Shown: one piece after another, positions 6,947 through 15,247 of the stretch | How positions within the stretch are numbered: position 1 is the first letter of the stretch | How the letters are laid out: every line of letters starts with the position of its first letter | DNA from: a virus | Virus record (IMG/VR): IMGVR_UViG_3300033150_001569 | Span: 32,001-96,000 of that record | Reading direction: 5' to 3' (one strand) | DNA: 64,000 bases | Translations under genes and position numbers: made by a program | Notes under the pieces: model-generated | The model's database searches: none | Told to the model about the DNA's origin: nothing | What the model saw: the letters and a program-made list of their open reading frames with translations, nothing else

Positions 6947-9238
6947 ATCAAAGATCATTTAAAATTACGTTATGTTACTTCTTCAAAAAAAGAAAATAGA
7001 GCAAAAGTAGATCCATTAACAGATGCATTTAAAGAATTATCAGATAGTAGTATTTTACTTTCAAATGAGAGAGAAAGTATATGGGAGCATGAAGTAGTTG
7101 ATGTTGAAAAATTTTTGTTACATAGTGACTATTTAGATCAAAAAGAATATGCACGTCCCTGGGTAGTAGATATTTTAAATGAAGTATTTGATGGTGTTGT
7201 TTATAATGCTAAAAATGGTGGAAATGATAAAGAAGGAGATTTATTATTTAAATATAAAGAAGTAATATTTAATACTGCTATTGGATGTGGTAAATGTTTA
7301 ACAGGAGAATCAATAATTAAATTAGATAATGGAACTCCAGTAGAAGTAAAAGATTTATATGATAGGTATCAAAATGGAGATAATAATTATTATACTTATT
7401 CATTAGATGAAAATAAAATAGAATTAGTAAAAAATAAAATTAAAACTGTTATTTCTAATGGTTATAAATATACTTTTGAAATATTTACAACTAATAAAAA
7501 AATAATAAGATGTACAAGTAATCATCCATTTTGGGGAACAATAAAACAAATAAATAAAATAAAACCATGTTGGAGACAATTACATACTATTAATGTTGGT
7601 GAAAAAATATTAACTTATGATTGGGAAAAGAAAAAATTTGTTTGGGATAGAATTAAAAGTATAAAATTTTCAGGAGTTAGAGAAGTATATGATTTATCAA
7701 TGGAAAATATAAATTATCCTTCTTTTGTTGCAAATGAATTTATAGTTCATAATTCATATACTTTATCATTAATATCATGTTATGTTGCTTATTTAATTTT
7801 GTGTTTAAAAGATCCTTGTAAATTTTTTAATCTTGCTCCTGGTAGTAAATTTGCAATTGTTAATAATTCTATTACACAGAAAAATGCTAAACGAGTTGTT
7901 TTTAGTGAAATATATAATAAAATATTAACATCTCCTTGGTTTCAAGATAAATATAGACCAAATCCAAGAATACAATCAGAATTACAATTTGATTATTTAC
8001 CAGATAATCCTGATTTAATTGATCCAAGAAGAAAATATAAATCAGTAACAATTATTCCTGGTTCTAGTAGTGAATTTTCTGCAATTGGTTTACAATTATT
8101 TTTAGGTATAATTGATGAAGCAAGTAAATATCCTATTATTAATGAAGTATCACAAGCAGAAACTATTTATACTACAATGGATAGACGAGTTACTTCTAGA
8201 TTTGGTTCTAGAGGATTGTTAGTTATAGCTGGATCACCTCAATATACAGGTGATTGGTTAGATGCAAAATATAAAGAGTCATTAGATGATGAATTAATTT
8301 TAACTAAAAATATTCCTTTATGGGAAGCAAAACAATCTACTTGGTTTATTGATGAAGAAACTAAAAATAAATTTTTCTATTTTCATCCTACTGATGAAGT
8401 AATTATAGAAGAAGATAATCCTAAAAAATATGATTGTATTAAAATACCTGATTTAAGAGAATATCGTAAAGCATTTGAAAAAAATCCTTCAGGAGCAAAA
8501 AGAGATTTAGGTGGAATGCCAAGTGATTCTCTTAAACCATTTTTTACAATACAAAGTGCTATTGATAAATGCATTGATTATACTAGAAAAAGTCCTTGTT
8601 TTAAAGAAACAGGAGATCAACCATTTAAATTTAAAGATTGGTTTAGACCTATTTCAGCAGGTGTTCATATTGTTCATGCTGACTTTTCATTAATGCGTGG
8701 TAAAGATTCCACGGGAATTTCGATAGGTCATATAGATCATGTTGATGAAGAAGGTTCTGTTTATGTTTATATTGATGCAATGATTAGAATGCGTGGTACT
8801 AAAGAAAAAAGATTAGATTTAGCAACTATTCGTGAAGTTATATATGAATTAACAGCTAGAGGATTTAATATTGGTTTAATTACTACAGATAGATTTCAAA
8901 GTTATGATTGTAGACAAATATTAGAAAAGAAAGGTTATAATTGTGATTTATTATCTGTAGATCAAAATATTCAACCTTATAATGATTTAAAAGAAGCTGT
9001 TTATGAAAAAAGAGTAAATTATTATGATGATCCTATATTTATACGTGAAATTAAATTACTTGAAGATATTAATGGAAAAAGAGTTGATCATCCACCAGGA
9101 GTTAATGCAATTGATGGTATGAAAAATAGTAAAGATATAAGTGATTCTGTTGCTGGTGTTGTTCATAATTTAATTAAATATCATAGAGAAATTTTAGATA
9201 ATATTGAAGAAGAAGATAATCAAGCTATTTTAATATAA
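6947..9238 (+). CDS. terL: terminase large subunit with mini-intein in Walker A; probable non-canonical start
   Basis: Spliced Walker A TAIGCGK|S, Walker B IIDEA, nuclease HADFS..DSTG, TTDRFQS, DHPPG..SKDISD. The frame is open from 6938 with no ATG/GTG/TTG until 7115; SD AAGGA at 6936-6940 precedes ATA/ATC. Confidence 0.9.
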   Translation: MKDHLKLRYVTSSKKENRAKVDPLTDAFKELSDSSILLSNERESIWEHEVVDVEKFLLHSDYLDQKEYARPWVVDILNEVFDGVVYNAKNGGNDKEGDLLFKYKEVIFNTAIGCGKCLTGESIIKLDNGTPVEVKDLYDRYQNGDNNYYTYSLDENKIELVKNKIKTVISNGYKYTFEIFTTNKKIIRCTSNHPFWGTIKQINKIKPCWRQLHTINVGEKILTYDWEKKKFVWDRIKSIKFSGVREVYDLSMENINYPSFVANEFIVHNSYTLSLISCYVAYLILCLKDPCKFFNLAPGSKFAIVNNSITQKNAKRVVFSEIYNKILTSPWFQDKYRPNPRIQSELQFDYLPDNPDLIDPRRKYKSVTIIPGSSSEFSAIGLQLFLGIIDEASKYPIINEVSQAETIYTTMDRRVTSRFGSRGLLVIAGSPQYTGDWLDAKYKESLDDELILTKNIPLWEAKQSTWFIDEETKNKFFYFHPTDEVIIEEDNPKKYDCIKIPDLREYRKAFEKNPSGAKRDLGGMPSDSLKPFFTIQSAIDKCIDYTRKSPCFKETGDQPFKFKDWFRPISAGVHIVHADFSLMRGKDSTGISIGHIDHVDEEGSVYVYIDAMIRMRGTKEKRLDLATIREVIYELTARGFNIGLITTDRFQSYDCRQILEKKGYNCDLLSVDQNIQPYNDLKEAVYEKRVNYYDDPIFIREIKLLEDINGKRVDHPPGVNAIDGMKNSKDISDSVAGVVHNLIKYHREILDNIEEEDNQAILI
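7295..7753 (+). mobile_element. mini-intein (153 aa, no endonuclease) in TerL
   Basis: Starts CLTGES; block B CTSNHPF; ends VYDLSM..FVANEFIVHN followed by Ser+1. Confidence 0.92.
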
Positions 9239-9248
9239 AATAATTAAT

Positions 9249-9515
9249 ATGTCTGAAAAAAGATCTAAAATAATTATTTGTAAAATACGTGGAAAAGTAA
9301 AACTTTTTAAACGTGGATATGGTTTTATTAATTTTTTAGAAGAAGATAATATCAATATTAAAAATGATATTTTTGTACATTATTCAAAAATAATTAGTGA
9401 TGAAAAATTTAAAACTTTAGAAGAAGGAGATATAGTAGAGTTTGATTTAGTTGAATATATAGATGGTCGTTTAAGAGCATTAAATGTTCGCAAAATAGAT
9501 AGGATAGGAGATTAA
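9249..9515 (+). CDS. cold-shock domain (CSP) RNA-binding protein
   Basis: GKVKLF..RGYGFI (RNP1), DIFVHYSKI (RNP2), FKTLEEGDIVEF, ALNV. Confidence 0.9.
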   Translation: MSEKRSKIIICKIRGKVKLFKRGYGFINFLEEDNINIKNDIFVHYSKIISDEKFKTLEEGDIVEFDLVEYIDGRLRALNVRKIDRIGD

Positions 9516-10227: not shown

Positions 10228-11445
10228 ATGGATGATAAAATTAAATATAAAATTTTTCAAAAATTTTTAAAATTTAAATATATAGAATCTATATTAAAAC
10301 AATTTCCAATTGATAGAGCAGATATGGGCGAAGAAGCAATGTATGATGAATTAATTGATTTTGAATTAGAATTATATGAAGCATTACAAACAGAATTTTC
10401 AAAATTATCTAAAGATTTTCAAAAATTAGAAAGTGATGCTTTTTTTGAATTATATAATGAAGAAAATATAGAAGCTGTACCATTAGTAGGAGGATTTGTT
10501 TTGGGTGTTGCTGCTTTAGATATATTTCATAATAAAGCAAATGCTTATTTAGGAACAGATTTTTTTATTAATATAAAAGATAAATTAAATGGTAATATGT
10601 TGGGAATGTATAATGAAGCATCTTCAAGAACTATTAATGAAATAGTTGCTAAATTACCTAGAGGATATAAAACTGATGGAAAAAATTATCTTAAAAATTT
10701 GCCAATTGATGATGTATTAGCAAGTGTTGATGCACAATATAGTAATTTTTTAACTGCTAATTATTTAGAAAATATATCAGGTAGAATATCAACTAGAGCT
10801 AATAAAATTTTAAATGAATTTGAAAGTAATATTGATAGAGTATTTGCTTTAAAACAAGATTTTTTAAATATTGATATTTATTCTGCTCCTTATTTATATG
10901 CCGCTTCTAGTACAATACAAAATTTAATTAGAAATAGAGCTATTGTTAATGTATATCAAAGAGCAAAAGTTACTACAGTAACATTTAATGCAGTTGGTGA
11001 TGATAGAACTTGTTTTCCAGAATTTGTTTCAGTTTTAACTTCTAATGGTAGAAAAAAAATTAAAGATATAAAAATTAATGATGAAGTATTAACACATAAA
11101 GGTAATTATAAAAAAGTTTTGGCAAGACAATGTTTCAATTATAATGATGATATTTATGAAATAAAACCAGAAAATAAAAAATTTAGAAATTTAAAATGTA
11201 CGAAGAATCATCCAATTTTAATTAAAAGAAATAATGAATATTATTGGATAGAAGCTAGAAATTTAAAAATTGGTGATATAATCATTAAATATAATTATTT
11301 AATTAAAAAATCAAAATGTAAATTTTGTGGAAAAGAATTTTATGCTAAATATTATTCTACTCATAAAAATTATTCATTATATTGTTCTTTAGATTGTTAT
11401 TTTAAAAGAAAAACTAAAAATATGATTGAAACTAAGTGTTGGTAA
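10228..11445 (+). CDS. MuF/SPP1-gp7-like head morphogenesis protein, N-terminal part plus N-intein
   Basis: FNAVGDDRT followed by intein start CFPEFVSVLT at 11011; block B CTKNHP; then a CxxCGK zinc finger and stop. Confidence 0.85.
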   Translation: MDDKIKYKIFQKFLKFKYIESILKQFPIDRADMGEEAMYDELIDFELELYEALQTEFSKLSKDFQKLESDAFFELYNEENIEAVPLVGGFVLGVAALDIFHNKANAYLGTDFFINIKDKLNGNMLGMYNEASSRTINEIVAKLPRGYKTDGKNYLKNLPIDDVLASVDAQYSNFLTANYLENISGRISTRANKILNEFESNIDRVFALKQDFLNIDIYSAPYLYAASSTIQNLIRNRAIVNVYQRAKVTTVTFNAVGDDRTCFPEFVSVLTSNGRKKIKDIKINDEVLTHKGNYKKVLARQCFNYNDDIYEIKPENKKFRNLKCTKNHPILIKRNNEYYWIEARNLKIGDIIIKYNYLIKKSKCKFCGKEFYAKYYSTHKNYSLYCSLDCYFKRKTKNMIETKCW

Positions 11446-11933
11446 AAGAATAAAACATATTAATAAATTTGATAATAAAGAAATTATTTTTAGTAGTTCT
11501 TGGGAATATAAATATGCATTATATTTAGAAAAAATAATATTAAATATATTTATGAATATAAAAGATTTAAAATAAAAAATAAAAATTTTAGAGATTATAC
11601 TCCAGATTTTTATTTAATAGATTCCGATGAATATATAGAAATAAAAGGAAGAAAAAAGAAAAAATTTGAAGAAAAATATATTATATTTAAAAAAGAAAGT
11701 CCAAATATAAAAATTAAAATATTATATCAAAATGATCTTAAAAATTTAGGAATTAAATTATGTTAAAATTAACAAAAGAAGAATCAAAAATAATTGATGA
11801 TATGTTAAAAAATAAGGTTTGTAGTGAAACTAAAATTAAAGAAATTAATAATAAAAAGAGAAATATTAAAGTTTATAATTTAGAAGTAGAAGACGATTTT
11901 ACATATAATGCAAATGATTATATTGTTCATAAT
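11011..11933 (+). mobile_element. split (fractured) intein with intervening degraded endonuclease
   Basis: IntN 11011-11445; IntC 11760-11933 (VYNLEVEDDFTYNANDYIVHN|T) with its own ATG and AGGA SD. Confidence 0.75.
11426..11766 (+). pseudogene. PD-(D/E)xK endonuclease remnant (frameshifted)
   Basis: FSSSWEYKYALYLEK, shift at the A6 run 11529-11534, then NNIKYIYEYKRF..YTPDFYL..YIEIKG..QNDLKNLGIKLC-stop; absent from the ORF track. Confidence 0.75.
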
Positions 11934-13427
11934 ACTGCTCTTTGTTTAAGTCTTAATCAAAGAGAATGGCAATTAACAGATATTTTAAATAAATTTGCAG
12001 AAGTTGATAATTTAGAATTACCTAGTGATGATTATAAAGAATCAATTAATAGATTAAAAGAAGCTCATCCATTTTTTAGATTTGATACTATAGCAGCAAG
12101 AGAAGGAAAAGATTCTATATATAAAGTTGATCGTGAAGGTAATAGAGATTATATAAAAGGTTCACGATTTGCTTATGATAGTGATACAGGAAAATATCGT
12201 CCTAATGTTAGTGATGATTATGTTGGTAATTTTATAGAAGCTGGAATTCCTTGTCCTCCGCTTCACAATTTTTGCTATCAGATAGATACGGAAGTTTATA
12301 CTAAAAGAGGTTGGTTATTATTTAAAAATTTAAAAGATAATGATTTAATTCTTACATTAAATCCAGAAACAAAAGATTTAGAATGGAGTAAAATTATAAG
12401 ACAAATATCATATAAATATAATGGTAAAATGATTTTATTTACAAATAATCAACATTCTTTAGATTTATGTGTTACTCCAGATCATCAACATTTTTATTAT
12501 AAAAGAGTAGATCATGCTACTAAAGGTAGATGGATGGAACCTATTTTTGCTAATTTTGAACAATTAAAAAAATCTGGTTCTGAAGTTATGTTTTATATTT
12601 CTAGTGAATGGAAAGGTGAAGATAAAAAATATATTGAAATAAATGGATTAAAATTAAAAACTGAAGATTATTGTAGATTAATGGGTTATTATTTATCTGA
12701 AGGTAGTACTAAAAAAGTAAGAAGTAATTCTGGTAATTATTATGCTCAAATAGCACAAGAAAAATTTATTAATAAAATGTATGAAGATATTAAAGATATT
12801 GGTTTAAAAAATATTACTAAAACAAAAGATAAAATACATATTTATGATATTAGATTTGGAAATTATGCAAAACAATTTGGTTATTCTTATGAAAAATATA
12901 TTCCAGAAGAAATTATGGAATTATCTCCAAATTATATAAGAATATTTTTAGATGCTTATAATTTAGGAGATGGTAGTATATTTATTAATAATAATTTTAA
13001 AGATTATCGAAAAGATATAAAATTTAAAGAATTAAAAAATTATTGTACAAGTTCTAAAAAAATTGCAAATCAAATAGGAGAATTAATATTAAAAGTTGGA
13101 AAATCTCCTAGTTTTAGAAAAGAAATGGTTAAAGGTAAAAAACAAAAATTTAGAAATGGTATTTATATAATTAATCATAATATTTATATTATTAATGAAT
13201 TATCATCTAAATATAGAAAACCAAGAATAATAAAAGAAATAGATTATAATGATTATGTTTATGATATAGAAGTAGAAAAAAATCATACGTTATGGGTAAG
13301 AAGAAATGGCAAAGCAGTTTGGTCAAGTAATTGTCGTTCTTGGTTAACAAGCACTCAAGAAACTTTTGATGAATTAGTTGAAACAATAGAAACAGAAAGA
13401 AAAAAAGATAATAAAAATTATATTTAA
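11760..13427 (+). CDS. MuF-like head morphogenesis protein, C-terminal part (C-intein, extein, second intein, extein)
   Basis: Splicing restores DDRT|TALCLSLN and PPLHNF|CRS, the two conserved MuF motifs. Confidence 0.85.
   Translation: MLKLTKEESKIIDDMLKNKVCSETKIKEINNKKRNIKVYNLEVEDDFTYNANDYIVHNTALCLSLNQREWQLTDILNKFAEVDNLELPSDDYKESINRLKEAHPFFRFDTIAAREGKDSIYKVDREGNRDYIKGSRFAYDSDTGKYRPNVSDDYVGNFIEAGIPCPPLHNFCYQIDTEVYTKRGWLLFKNLKDNDLILTLNPETKDLEWSKIIRQISYKYNGKMILFTNNQHSLDLCVTPDHQHFYYKRVDHATKGRWMEPIFANFEQLKKSGSEVMFYISSEWKGEDKKYIEINGLKLKTEDYCRLMGYYLSEGSTKKVRSNSGNYYAQIAQEKFINKMYEDIKDIGLKNITKTKDKIHIYDIRFGNYAKQFGYSYEKYIPEEIMELSPNYIRIFLDAYNLGDGSIFINNNFKDYRKDIKFKELKNYCTSSKKIANQIGELILKVGKSPSFRKEMVKGKKQKFRNGIYIINHNIYIINELSSKYRKPRIIKEIDYNDYVYDIEVEKNHTLWVRRNGKAVWSSNCRSWLTSTQETFDELVETIETERKKDNKNYI
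12273..13331 (+). mobile_element. intein with LAGLIDADG (DOD) homing endonuclease, 353 aa
   Basis: CYQIDTEVYT start, VTPDH, LMGYYLSEGS and FLDAYNLGDGS motifs, end KAVWSSN|C. Confidence 0.92.
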
Positions 13428-13636: not shown

Positions 13637-15247
13637 ATGAGTAGAAAAAGAAAAAATAATAAACAAGTAGATAATAAATCTACTAAAATAAAAGAAGAAA
13701 TTATTGAAACTAAAAAAATATATAATGAAGAAGAATTTAATAAAGCAATTAAAAATTCAGATCCTAATTCAATAATGAAAGCATTTCTTATATCTGATGA
13801 AGGTGTAGAATCTAAACAATTAAAGGATGAATGGGCAGATTTAGAAATAGAAGATGCAGTAGTTCCTCCATATGATCCTGAAACATGGGCAGAATATTTA
13901 GAATTAAGCTCATCATTAAGATCATCAATAGATTCATTAGCATTAAATACAGTTGGATTAGGTTGGAATACAATTAGAAATAAAAAATTTGATAGATCAT
14001 TTGATGAAAAAGAAGAAAAAGCTTTTCAAAAAGAAAAACAAATATTAGATGAATTATTTGAATTTCCTAATCAAGAAATGCCTTTTTTAACAGTTACAAC
14101 ACGTATTAAAACAGATGAAGAAGCAACTGGTAATGGATATATGGAAGTTGCAAGAAATAGAAAAAATAAAATTAAAGCATTATATCATGTACCTAGTCAT
14201 ACAATGAGAGTTAGAAAAAATGGTGGATTTATTCAATTAAGAAATGGTGTTATTAGATATTTTAAAGATTTTGGTGATGAAAGAATAATTGATGCAGAAA
14301 CAGGATATGAAAATAAAAATATTCCTTTTGAAGAAAGGGCAAATGAAATAATACATTTTAAATTATATTGTCCTAGAGATTCATTTTATGGAATACCTAG
14401 ACATGCAAGTGCTCAATATGCAATTGAAGGTAATTATAATGCTGCTGAATATAATGCATCATTTTTTAAAAATGCTGCTACACCTAGATATATTATTTTA
14501 TGTGATGGTACTAATATTGATAAAGAATCAATTGAACATGTTAAACAATTTTTTCAAGCAAGTGGAAAGGGACCAAAAAATGCTCATAGATGTCTTATTC
14601 TTCAAACAAGTAAAAAAAGTTTTGCAGGTCCAAGTCAAGCAGATAAAGGACATATTAAGTTAGAACCAGTTACAATAGGAAAGACAGATGATGCTAGTCA
14701 TTTAAATTATCAAAAGAAAAATGATGAAGAAATAAGAAGTGTACATAGAATACCATCTATACTTTTAGGTATTCTTGAAGATGCAAATAGAGCAACTGCT
14801 TTAACAGCTATTGGAATAGTTAATCAACAAGTATTTTTACCAGAACAAGTTAGATATGAATATATAATAAATCATACACTTGTAAAAGATTTTGGATTTA
14901 AATATGCAAAATTTGAATTTGTCGATTTAGAATCTACTGATCCAGTTGAAAAAGCAGAAATTGATGAAATATATGCAAAAGCAGGTACATTATCAATTGA
15001 TGAAATAAGAAGTAGCATTAAGAAACAACCTTTTAATAAAACATGGTCTAAAATACCATTTGAGGTATTAAAGATATATCTTACATCACAGAGAGATGCA
15101 GAATTAAAAGAAAATGAAAATATGAAAGATGATGATGTTAAAAAAATTGCAGATATTAGAAAGAAAATTATTAAAAGTTTAAGAAAAGTTAATAAAGATC
15201 TTCAAAAAGATTTGAAAGATAAAAATATTGATGATTTATTTATTTAA
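13637..15247 (+). CDS. portal protein (PBSX/P2-like)
   Basis: VVPPYDP, DEEATGNGYMEV, NEIIHFK..DSFYGIP, FFKNAATPR, HRIPSILLG. Confidence 0.92.
   Translation: MSRKRKNNKQVDNKSTKIKEEIIETKKIYNEEEFNKAIKNSDPNSIMKAFLISDEGVESKQLKDEWADLEIEDAVVPPYDPETWAEYLELSSSLRSSIDSLALNTVGLGWNTIRNKKFDRSFDEKEEKAFQKEKQILDELFEFPNQEMPFLTVTTRIKTDEEATGNGYMEVARNRKNKIKALYHVPSHTMRVRKNGGFIQLRNGVIRYFKDFGDERIIDAETGYENKNIPFEERANEIIHFKLYCPRDSFYGIPRHASAQYAIEGNYNAAEYNASFFKNAATPRYIILCDGTNIDKESIEHVKQFFQASGKGPKNAHRCLILQTSKKSFAGPSQADKGHIKLEPVTIGKTDDASHLNYQKKNDEEIRSVHRIPSILLGILEDANRATALTAIGIVNQQVFLPEQVRYEYIINHTLVKDFGFKYAKFEFVDLESTDPVEKAEIDEIYAKAGTLSIDEIRSSIKKQPFNKTWSKIPFEVLKIYLTSQRDAELKENENMKDDDVKKIADIRKKIIKSLRKVNKDLQKDLKDKNIDDLFI

Follow-up and report, generated by a model that had tools for sequence, protein, structure and literature searches.

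The locus described here lies at positions 10228-13427 of the window, by which we mean the whole stretch of 64,000 nucleotides analysed, bases 32001-96000 of the 122,307-bp IMG/VR virus record IMGVR_UViG_3300033150_001569. We propose, with a probability that we put at roughly 0.7, that it is a 'fractured' gene for a MuF-like head-morphogenesis protein, in which a split intein surrounds an endonuclease and a second intein, acting in cis, follows downstream. Directly observed are the anatomy of the locus, the exact positions of its junctions, the families of its parts and the return of the same arrangement in other viral records, and judged from the sequence both trans-splicing and cis-splicing of the MuF-like protein appear probable. 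The source record is linear, with a completeness of 67% by CheckV and a G+C content of 24%, and under translation table 11 it carries long plus-strand open reading frames (ORFs) along its whole length; the locus is placed in the head module, between the genes for the terminase large subunit (TerL) and the portal. Two long frames, ORF1 and ORF3, enclose an interval that holds a broken nuclease remnant in two frames, and the parts are as follows.

10228-11445, plus strand: ORF1, 405 amino acids, TAA stop at 11443-11445
10228-11010, plus strand: N-extein, amino acids 1-261, ending in ...AVGDDRT
11011-11301, plus strand: N-terminal lobe of intein 1 (IntN), about 97 amino acids, Cys1 in CFPEF, block B TKNH
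11302-11445, plus strand: Zn-ribbon tail CKFCGK...YCSLDC, in frame with IntN and running to the ORF1 TAA; N-terminal DNA-binding part of the endonuclease
11426-11534, plus strand: piece 1 of the endonuclease remnant, in a second frame, ...GKRIKHIN...SSSWEYKYALYLEK
11533-11766, plus strand: piece 2 of the endonuclease remnant, back in the frame of ORF1, NNIKY...YTPDFYLIDSDEYIEIKG...LKNLGIKLC, stop TAA at 11764-11766
11748-11751, plus strand: Shine-Dalgarno motif AGGA, 8 nt before the ATG of ORF3
11760-13427, plus strand: ORF3, 555 amino acids
11760-11933, plus strand: C-terminal half of intein 1 (IntC), 58 amino acids, ending in ...VYNLEVEDDFTYNANDYIVHN, then Thr
11934-12272, plus strand: middle extein, 113 amino acids, TALCLSLNQ...PPLHNF
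12273-13331, plus strand: intein 2, contiguous, 353 amino acids with a LAGLIDADG endonuclease domain, CYQIDT...VWSSN, before CRSW
13332-13427, plus strand: C-extein, 31 amino acids, CRSWLTSTQ..., and the stop codon

ORF1 joins the N-extein, which closes on GDDRT, to 144 residues that begin at CFPEF, include TKNH and end in the Zn-ribbon tail. In ORF3 the IntC is followed by the middle extein, the 353-residue intein (residues 172-524) and the C-extein, and the three exteins sum to 261+113+31 = 405 amino acids. A word-index search with the N-extein returned a single relative, the intein-free protein P0002 of 389 amino acids, whose residues 10-259 are 51% identical to residues 10-262 of ORF1. P0002 then continues directly into residues 59-171 of ORF3 (its own residues 259-370, within an alignment of 48% identity) and from there into residues 525-543; at the junctions it reads ...ADERS/TDICLSLNQ... 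and ...PPLHYL/CRSW... (the slash marks the intein position), with no residue gained or lost, and its C-terminus, CRSWLTTAN..., aligns with the C-extein. As P0002 can be aligned across both junctions, inteins 1 and 2 are exact insertions.

The same continuity is seen at the level of the family. P0002 served as query for an exhaustive phmmer search through 1.84 billion representatives, which at E <= 0.001 yielded 28 proteins, two of which are the window's own ORFs, leaving 26 relatives with P0002 included, and a family profile was built from 25 of them, P0002 being excluded. This profile is matched by the N-extein at positions 23-257 (E 4.5e-19), by the middle extein at 257-363 (E 4.6e-15) and by the C-extein at 362-382, and by the whole ORFs with E-values of 2e-19 (ORF1) and 7e-16 (ORF3), such that the three extein pieces tile the profile end to end without a gap. 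The motifs D-E-R-T..C..G and PP.H..CR, which we take to be the definers of MuF, are both restored across the intein junctions; within the family D255 and C262 are invariant, and P365, P366, H368, C371 and R372 are nearly so. A preliminary description of this DNA, made from the letters alone, had predicted a spliced MuF of about 405 amino acids with both motifs restored, an architecture that P0002 and the tiling of the 25-relative profile support.

The name of the family comes from its members. PF04233 (Phage_Mu_F) is matched at E <= 0.01 by 24 of the 26 relatives; when seven of them were scanned again, six matched, two of these above the curated cut-off, and the two proteins checked against PHROG, P0004 and P0021, fall into its minor head protein and head morphogenesis families. 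The label 'MuF-like' is thus supported for the window protein by transitive homology and the two restored motifs, without a direct Pfam match. Some relatives of this family (P0004, P0020 and others) are much longer, 620-1233 amino acids, with ATLF-like or M90-like peptidase domains or Rho_N repeats at the C-terminus, and are MuF fusions to cargo domains.

The 5' half of intein 1 is recognized by Pfam as Intein_splicing at positions 30-102 (E 4.5e-7) and as Hom_end_hint at positions 1-84, and inteins of the PDB match it weakly. IntN is 34% identical (E 2e-11) to the N-terminal end of the contiguous intein in gp15 of Gordonia phage Barsten and about 38-40% identical to P0065 and P0071, two IntN-bearing IMPDH fragments; the word-index search with IntN found no intein above 42% identity. 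IntC, residues 1-58 of ORF3, covers positions 107-155 of Intein_splicing, matches TIGR01443 at positions 1-24 with 15.8 bits against a cut-off of 15.6, and is 38% identical (E 4e-4) to the C-terminal end of the Barsten intein. Judged by this coverage, IntN and IntC jointly make up one splicing domain, broken where endonuclease domains normally insert. The core residues are all kept, namely Cys1, TxxH, the terminal HN in IVHN, and Thr at position +1. Both halves had been proposed beforehand, the IntN with CFPE and TKNH in an ORF1 that stops at 11445, and a 58-residue IntC that ends in IVHN/T and begins at an ATG at 11760, overlapping the preceding stop and preceded by an AGGA Shine-Dalgarno motif, and in every one of these details the proposal was correct. 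The limit between IntN and the Zn-ribbon tail (11301/11302) is approximate.

Between the halves lies a nuclease stretch of 340 nt. The two pieces of the remnant and the ORF1 tail were aligned, in separate rows, with eight full-length nuclease relatives. The segment KCKFCGKEF of the ORF1 tail can be placed on the CxxC ribbon that free-standing relatives of the nuclease have at their N-terminus, the remainder of the tail is not convincingly placed, and Pfam names nothing in it. The Zn finger was considered as a part of the intein and rejected, as its start aligns with the N-terminal ribbon of the nuclease family; the finger that the preliminary description noted after IntN is therefore present, but as a part of the in-frame nuclease fusion rather than of the intein. 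Piece 1, whose reading frame spans 11426-11575, aligns with ...GKxxxHGK...MRSSWEIxYAKYLDK of the eight relatives, and its only candidate start is a TTG at 11426 that lacks a core Shine-Dalgarno motif. Piece 2 aligns with two structures of T7 endonuclease I, 3cae (E 7.6e-4) and 1m0d (E 2e-3), the PD...E.K residues included, and matches Pfam Phage_endo_I (PF05367) with E 9e-4 at 19.3 bits, under the cut-off of 29.1, a cut-off exceeded by intact relatives in the viral records L060 and L061 (35.1 and 38.2 bits). A tblastn search of phages with the 74-residue nuclease piece gave no match. The 31 longer relatives of the nuclease, of 194-310 amino acids, carry precomputed domains PF05367 (Phage_endo_I), PF07460 (NUMOD3) and PF12773 (double zinc ribbon).

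By these alignments the endonuclease is a Zn-ribbon/NUMOD3 plus T7-endonuclease-I-like protein joined in frame to IntN. It is now broken twice, at about 11426-11445 and, between YLEK and NNIKY, in an A6 run at 11529-11534. The region of the catalytic Glu is cut off from the D/E/K region, and the window copy of the nuclease is most likely dead. A frameshifted PD-(D/E)xK nuclease that closes on DLKNLGIKLC and a stop at 11766 had been noticed before; its end is the native C-terminus of the nuclease family.

Piece 2 ends at the natural C-terminus of the eight free-standing relatives (...LKNLG[IV]L), and the ATG of ORF3 overlaps the nuclease stop by 7 nt. Among ORFs of at least 100 amino acids, 46 of 90 first-ATG starts have a core Shine-Dalgarno motif upstream; of the internal in-frame ATGs, 11 of 341 have one. 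At 11760-11766 the change of frame needs no indel, being the native stop of the nuclease. As this stop falls at the C-terminus native to the family and overlaps an ATG preceded by AGGA, the sequence supports a gene boundary rather than an assembly error. The frames of ORF1 and ORF3 have a terminal stop only, against 34-104 stops in the other frames. Two further candidates were rejected: programmed frameshifting into a contiguous intein, since the nuclease frame ends at the family's native stop, and another genetic code, since both critical stops are TAA and long table 11 frames occur elsewhere in the record.

The second intein, which the earlier reading had placed as a full LAGLIDADG intein in PPLHNF/CRS, is indeed found there, with a length of 353 amino acids. 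It matches Pfam Intein_splicing (E 1.4e-7) and TIGR01443 (22.6 bits), and LAGLIDADG_3 at 21.3 bits, just under the cut-off of 22.5. Cys1 (in CYQIDT), block B (TPDH), the terminal Asn (...SSN) and the +1 Cys are present; the penultimate residue is Ser (VWSSN) and not His. A penultimate His is common in inteins and not universal. Over its tail, intein 2 shares 76% identity with an intein on metagenome contig L007, which lies at the ...N/CRC site of another phage's gene and has Gly as its penultimate residue, and the Barsten gp15 intein likewise occupies the ...N/CRC site, which is the site of intein 2. In P0020, the MuF-like relative of 997 amino acids, a contiguous intein of about 370 residues is found at ...TTPI/C, three residues downstream of the intein 1 site; its position indicates that the MuF motif has at least two intein insertion points, in addition to the CR[CS] site.

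The arrangement around the nuclease recurs elsewhere. IMG/VR was scanned with the nuclease-family alignment, giving at least 512 confirmed stretches; 80 loci, spread over 79 records, were retained, and these 79 records were searched with PF14890 for flanking intein halves. In four of them a member of the nuclease family is bracketed by an IntN and an IntC match, and in the remaining 75 it is not flanked by PF14890 matches. The four are the following.

L060: terminase large subunit; IntN in frame with an intact nuclease, and an ATGA overlap to the IntC ORF
L061: B12-binding radical SAM protein; the halves enclose a methyltransferase gene and a free-standing nuclease
L070: ResIII/DEAD helicase; free-standing nuclease
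L082: small unnamed gene; nuclease in frame with IntC

The proposal that the split intein of the window flanks an endonuclease gene thus gains support from the nuclease C-terminus and from four independent loci. The architecture of L060 would represent the ancestor type of the window locus, and its insertion site is the site of a contiguous mini-intein in the TerL of the window.

Split arrangements were also seen in other phages. In the unannotated region at about 122.9-125.4 kb of Streptococcus phage vB_SagM-GXN1 (PQ819873.1; L005), a TerL-like ...DHPPNS/C, an IntN and a long nuclease-like domain share one frame that then stops, and an IntC (...VVHN/SKDISDS...) carries on in another frame, so that the packaging gene of this isolated phage appears to hold a split intein. 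Campylobacter phage CPt10 (NC_027996.1; L014) and Tenacibaculum phage PTm1 (AP019524.1; L015) have a ribonucleotide reductase of the form IntN, stop, IntC that is annotated as 'disrupted' or as two coding sequences; in PTm1, ORF-049 is annotated as starting downstream of the IntC and of about 100 extein residues.

The neighbours of the locus within the window are:

7115-9238: terminase large subunit (TerL), with its own contiguous mini-intein
9249-9515: cold-shock-domain gene (CSD, E 1.7e-15), which with the two small ORFs that come after it separates the terminase from the MuF-like gene
13637-15247: portal gene

The mini-intein of TerL is about 144 amino acids long and occupies residues 70-213 (CLTGES...FIVHN/S). 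Scans for promoters (40 sites against 40.6 expected) and for terminators (none) were not informative.

Based on these data we propose that a homing endonuclease of the Zn-ribbon/NUMOD3 plus T7-endonuclease-I-like type invaded an intein at the conserved DERT/T motif of the gene. The endonuclease would have become fused in frame to the N-lobe of the intein while keeping its own native stop, and would have provided the remainder of the gene with the overlapping ATG and its Shine-Dalgarno motif; since then the intein would have been split. ORF1 would now yield N-extein-IntN with its Zn ribbon, and ORF3 would yield IntC-middle extein-intein 2-C-extein, the endonuclease itself having later decayed through two frame changes. 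IntN and IntC would associate and splice in trans, joining ...DDRT to TALC..., and the LAGLIDADG intein 2 would be excised in cis, joining ...PPLHNF to CRSW..., the end product being a MuF-like protein of 405 amino acids.

Several observations weigh against this proposal. Neither the three extein pieces nor P0002 match PF04233 even at E <= 10, and the extein pieces receive no name from Pfam, NCBIfam or PHROGs; the MuF identity given in the preliminary description accordingly stands through the relatives, but Pfam is silent on the exteins of the window itself. Not every phage depends on a MuF-type protein, so that the gene could be dead. In block F of IntC an early Asn replaces Asp, and Phe replaces the His of many inteins, Asp and His being the consensus at these positions. 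IntN carries the 47-residue Zn-ribbon tail and IntC about 25 extra N-terminal residues, and the net charges of the halves (+9 for the Hint part of IntN, 0 for IntC) are not opposite. Tblastn and megablast against 50,697 phage records gave no match to the locus, the viral contigs scanned with the N-extein and with P0002 yielded no relative, and the metagenome contigs scanned with ORF3 gave only L007, with the relative of the intein 2 tail, and L008, with a LAGLIDADG part. The exact ORF1 and ORF3 proteins occur on three and four JGI contigs, respectively, which may derive from one assembly.

The same features can be read as those of a gene in decay, in real DNA whose intein 1 no longer splices, leaving a MuF-like pseudogene in a defective genome or in a phage that tolerates its loss. 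With its two frame changes the intervening nuclease is plainly in decay, and the departures in block F, the extra tails, the missing charge complementarity and the limited completeness of the record all agree with decay; against it, 405 codons of ORF1 and 555 of ORF3 have remained open in DNA of such low G+C that stops are about 10 codons apart in a random frame, both inteins have retained their core splicing residues, the Shine-Dalgarno motif and overlapping ATG have been kept, and the intein of the isolated phage Barsten has the same Asn and Phe in block F. We consider a decayed gene unlikely. It is also conceivable that the two products are never joined, the intein halves merely docking them non-covalently or the products acting separately, as there are genes that endonucleases have split without any intein (the SbcD-like locus and Aeh1 nrdA, both cited in Dassa et al. 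2009, PMC2677866). Such a two-piece protein would keep 144 and 58 foreign residues at a break within the family's most conserved motif, where D255 and C262 are invariant, and would do so with all catalytic intein residues in place, and we regard it as quite improbable.

An assembly or sequencing artefact, in which a truly contiguous intein with an in-frame endonuclease has been interrupted by three indel errors, seems to us very improbable. The frame change within the nuclease does fall in the A6 run, and a genome so poor in G+C is rich in homopolymers; the first and third frame changes, however, are not in runs longer than 4-5 nt, and the third, as seen above, is where proteins of the nuclease family naturally end. 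Moreover, 272 A/T runs of six or more lie within 36 uninterrupted frames of at least 300 codons in the same record, a count biased to intact frames, and the split layout is also present in the four other records. A trans-spliced and cis-spliced MuF-like protein, encoded by a fractured gene, thus remains the reading that we favour.

A protein that undergoes both trans- and cis-splicing has a precedent in the dnaE of Trichodesmium erythraeum, which holds a split intein and contiguous inteins. It differs from the locus of the window in being a cellular replication gene whose halves lie far apart in the genome, with no endonuclease gene between them. The layout itself is already known from other phage genes, and the modest novelty here lies in the host protein and the nuclease family. 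In the account of fractured genes by Dassa et al. 2009 (PMC2677866), the hosts include helicase, IMPDH, DnaE, NrdA, NrdJ, ligase and phage terminase, the split inteins named include gp41-1, IMPDH-1 and NrdJ-1, and the endonucleases are GIY-YIG or Vsr-like. An overlap of 6-69 bp between the end of the endonuclease and the IntC ORF, found in 15 loci, is given there as a hallmark, and the origin proposed is the invasion of an intein by a free-standing endonuclease. The window locus shares with these loci an ORF of N-extein and IntN that ends in a stop, an endonuclease, an overlapping ORF that begins with Met-IntC, and a phage genome. Unlike those loci, it has a MuF-like virion morphogenesis protein as host, a Zn-ribbon/NUMOD3 plus T7-endonuclease-I-like nuclease that is fused to IntN and carries two frame breaks, and a second contiguous intein 113 residues downstream. 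The preliminary description had confined the known hosts of such genes to replication and nucleotide metabolism, which the phage terminase in the list above shows to be too narrow.

It had also called unusual a split intein in a virion morphogenesis protein that is chained to a second intein on the same polypeptide; contiguous inteins have already been reported in MuF-type (IPR006528) minor capsid proteins of actinobacteriophages (Gosselin et al., bioRxiv 10.1101/2025.01.02.630785). In the portion of that preprint relevant here the single split intein named is in the nucleotidyltransferase of phage Zeenon, and none is named in minor capsid proteins. Our literature search found no work linking split inteins with head morphogenesis, and the supplements of Dassa et al. 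and of the preprint may list further hosts; among the matches listed, none ties T7-endonuclease-I-like nucleases to inteins. Barsten gp15 (NC_055856.1), annotated as head morphogenesis or minor capsid protein, shares with the window gene the host family, the site of intein 2 and intein ends that resemble IntN and IntC. Its intein is contiguous, whereas the related intein 1 of the window is at DERT/T and split. T7 endonuclease I (PDB 3cae, 1m0d; PF05367) resembles the window remnant in its PD...E.K core, which can be aligned, but it is a junction resolvase and has neither a Zn-ribbon nor a NUMOD3 module. In domain composition and in genomic behaviour the nuclease family of the window is that of a homing endonuclease, the copy in the window being broken.

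Protein ligation tools are made from natural split inteins, of which few independent pairs are known. The pair of the window is distant from the others, its IntN being at most 42% identical to any protein found; it has Thr at position +1 and is sited in a virion protein rather than in an enzyme of DNA metabolism. Together with the four parallel loci, the window adds a third nuclease family in the role that GIY-YIG and Vsr-like endonucleases play in fractured genes. A larger claim, which we hold only tentatively, joins two parts: that the Zn-ribbon/NUMOD3 plus T7-endonuclease-I-like nucleases may be an undescribed class of homing endonucleases that has repeatedly split inteins in phage genes, packaging and virion genes included, and that the MuF pair may be an active Cys1/Thr+1 trans-splicing pair, no more than 42% identical to anything found, working in series with a cis intein. 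The loci form a series of stages, with the nuclease on IntN (L060), free-standing (L061, L070), on IntC (L082) and decayed (the window), and this series makes the gene-breaking model of the origin of split inteins more directly testable.

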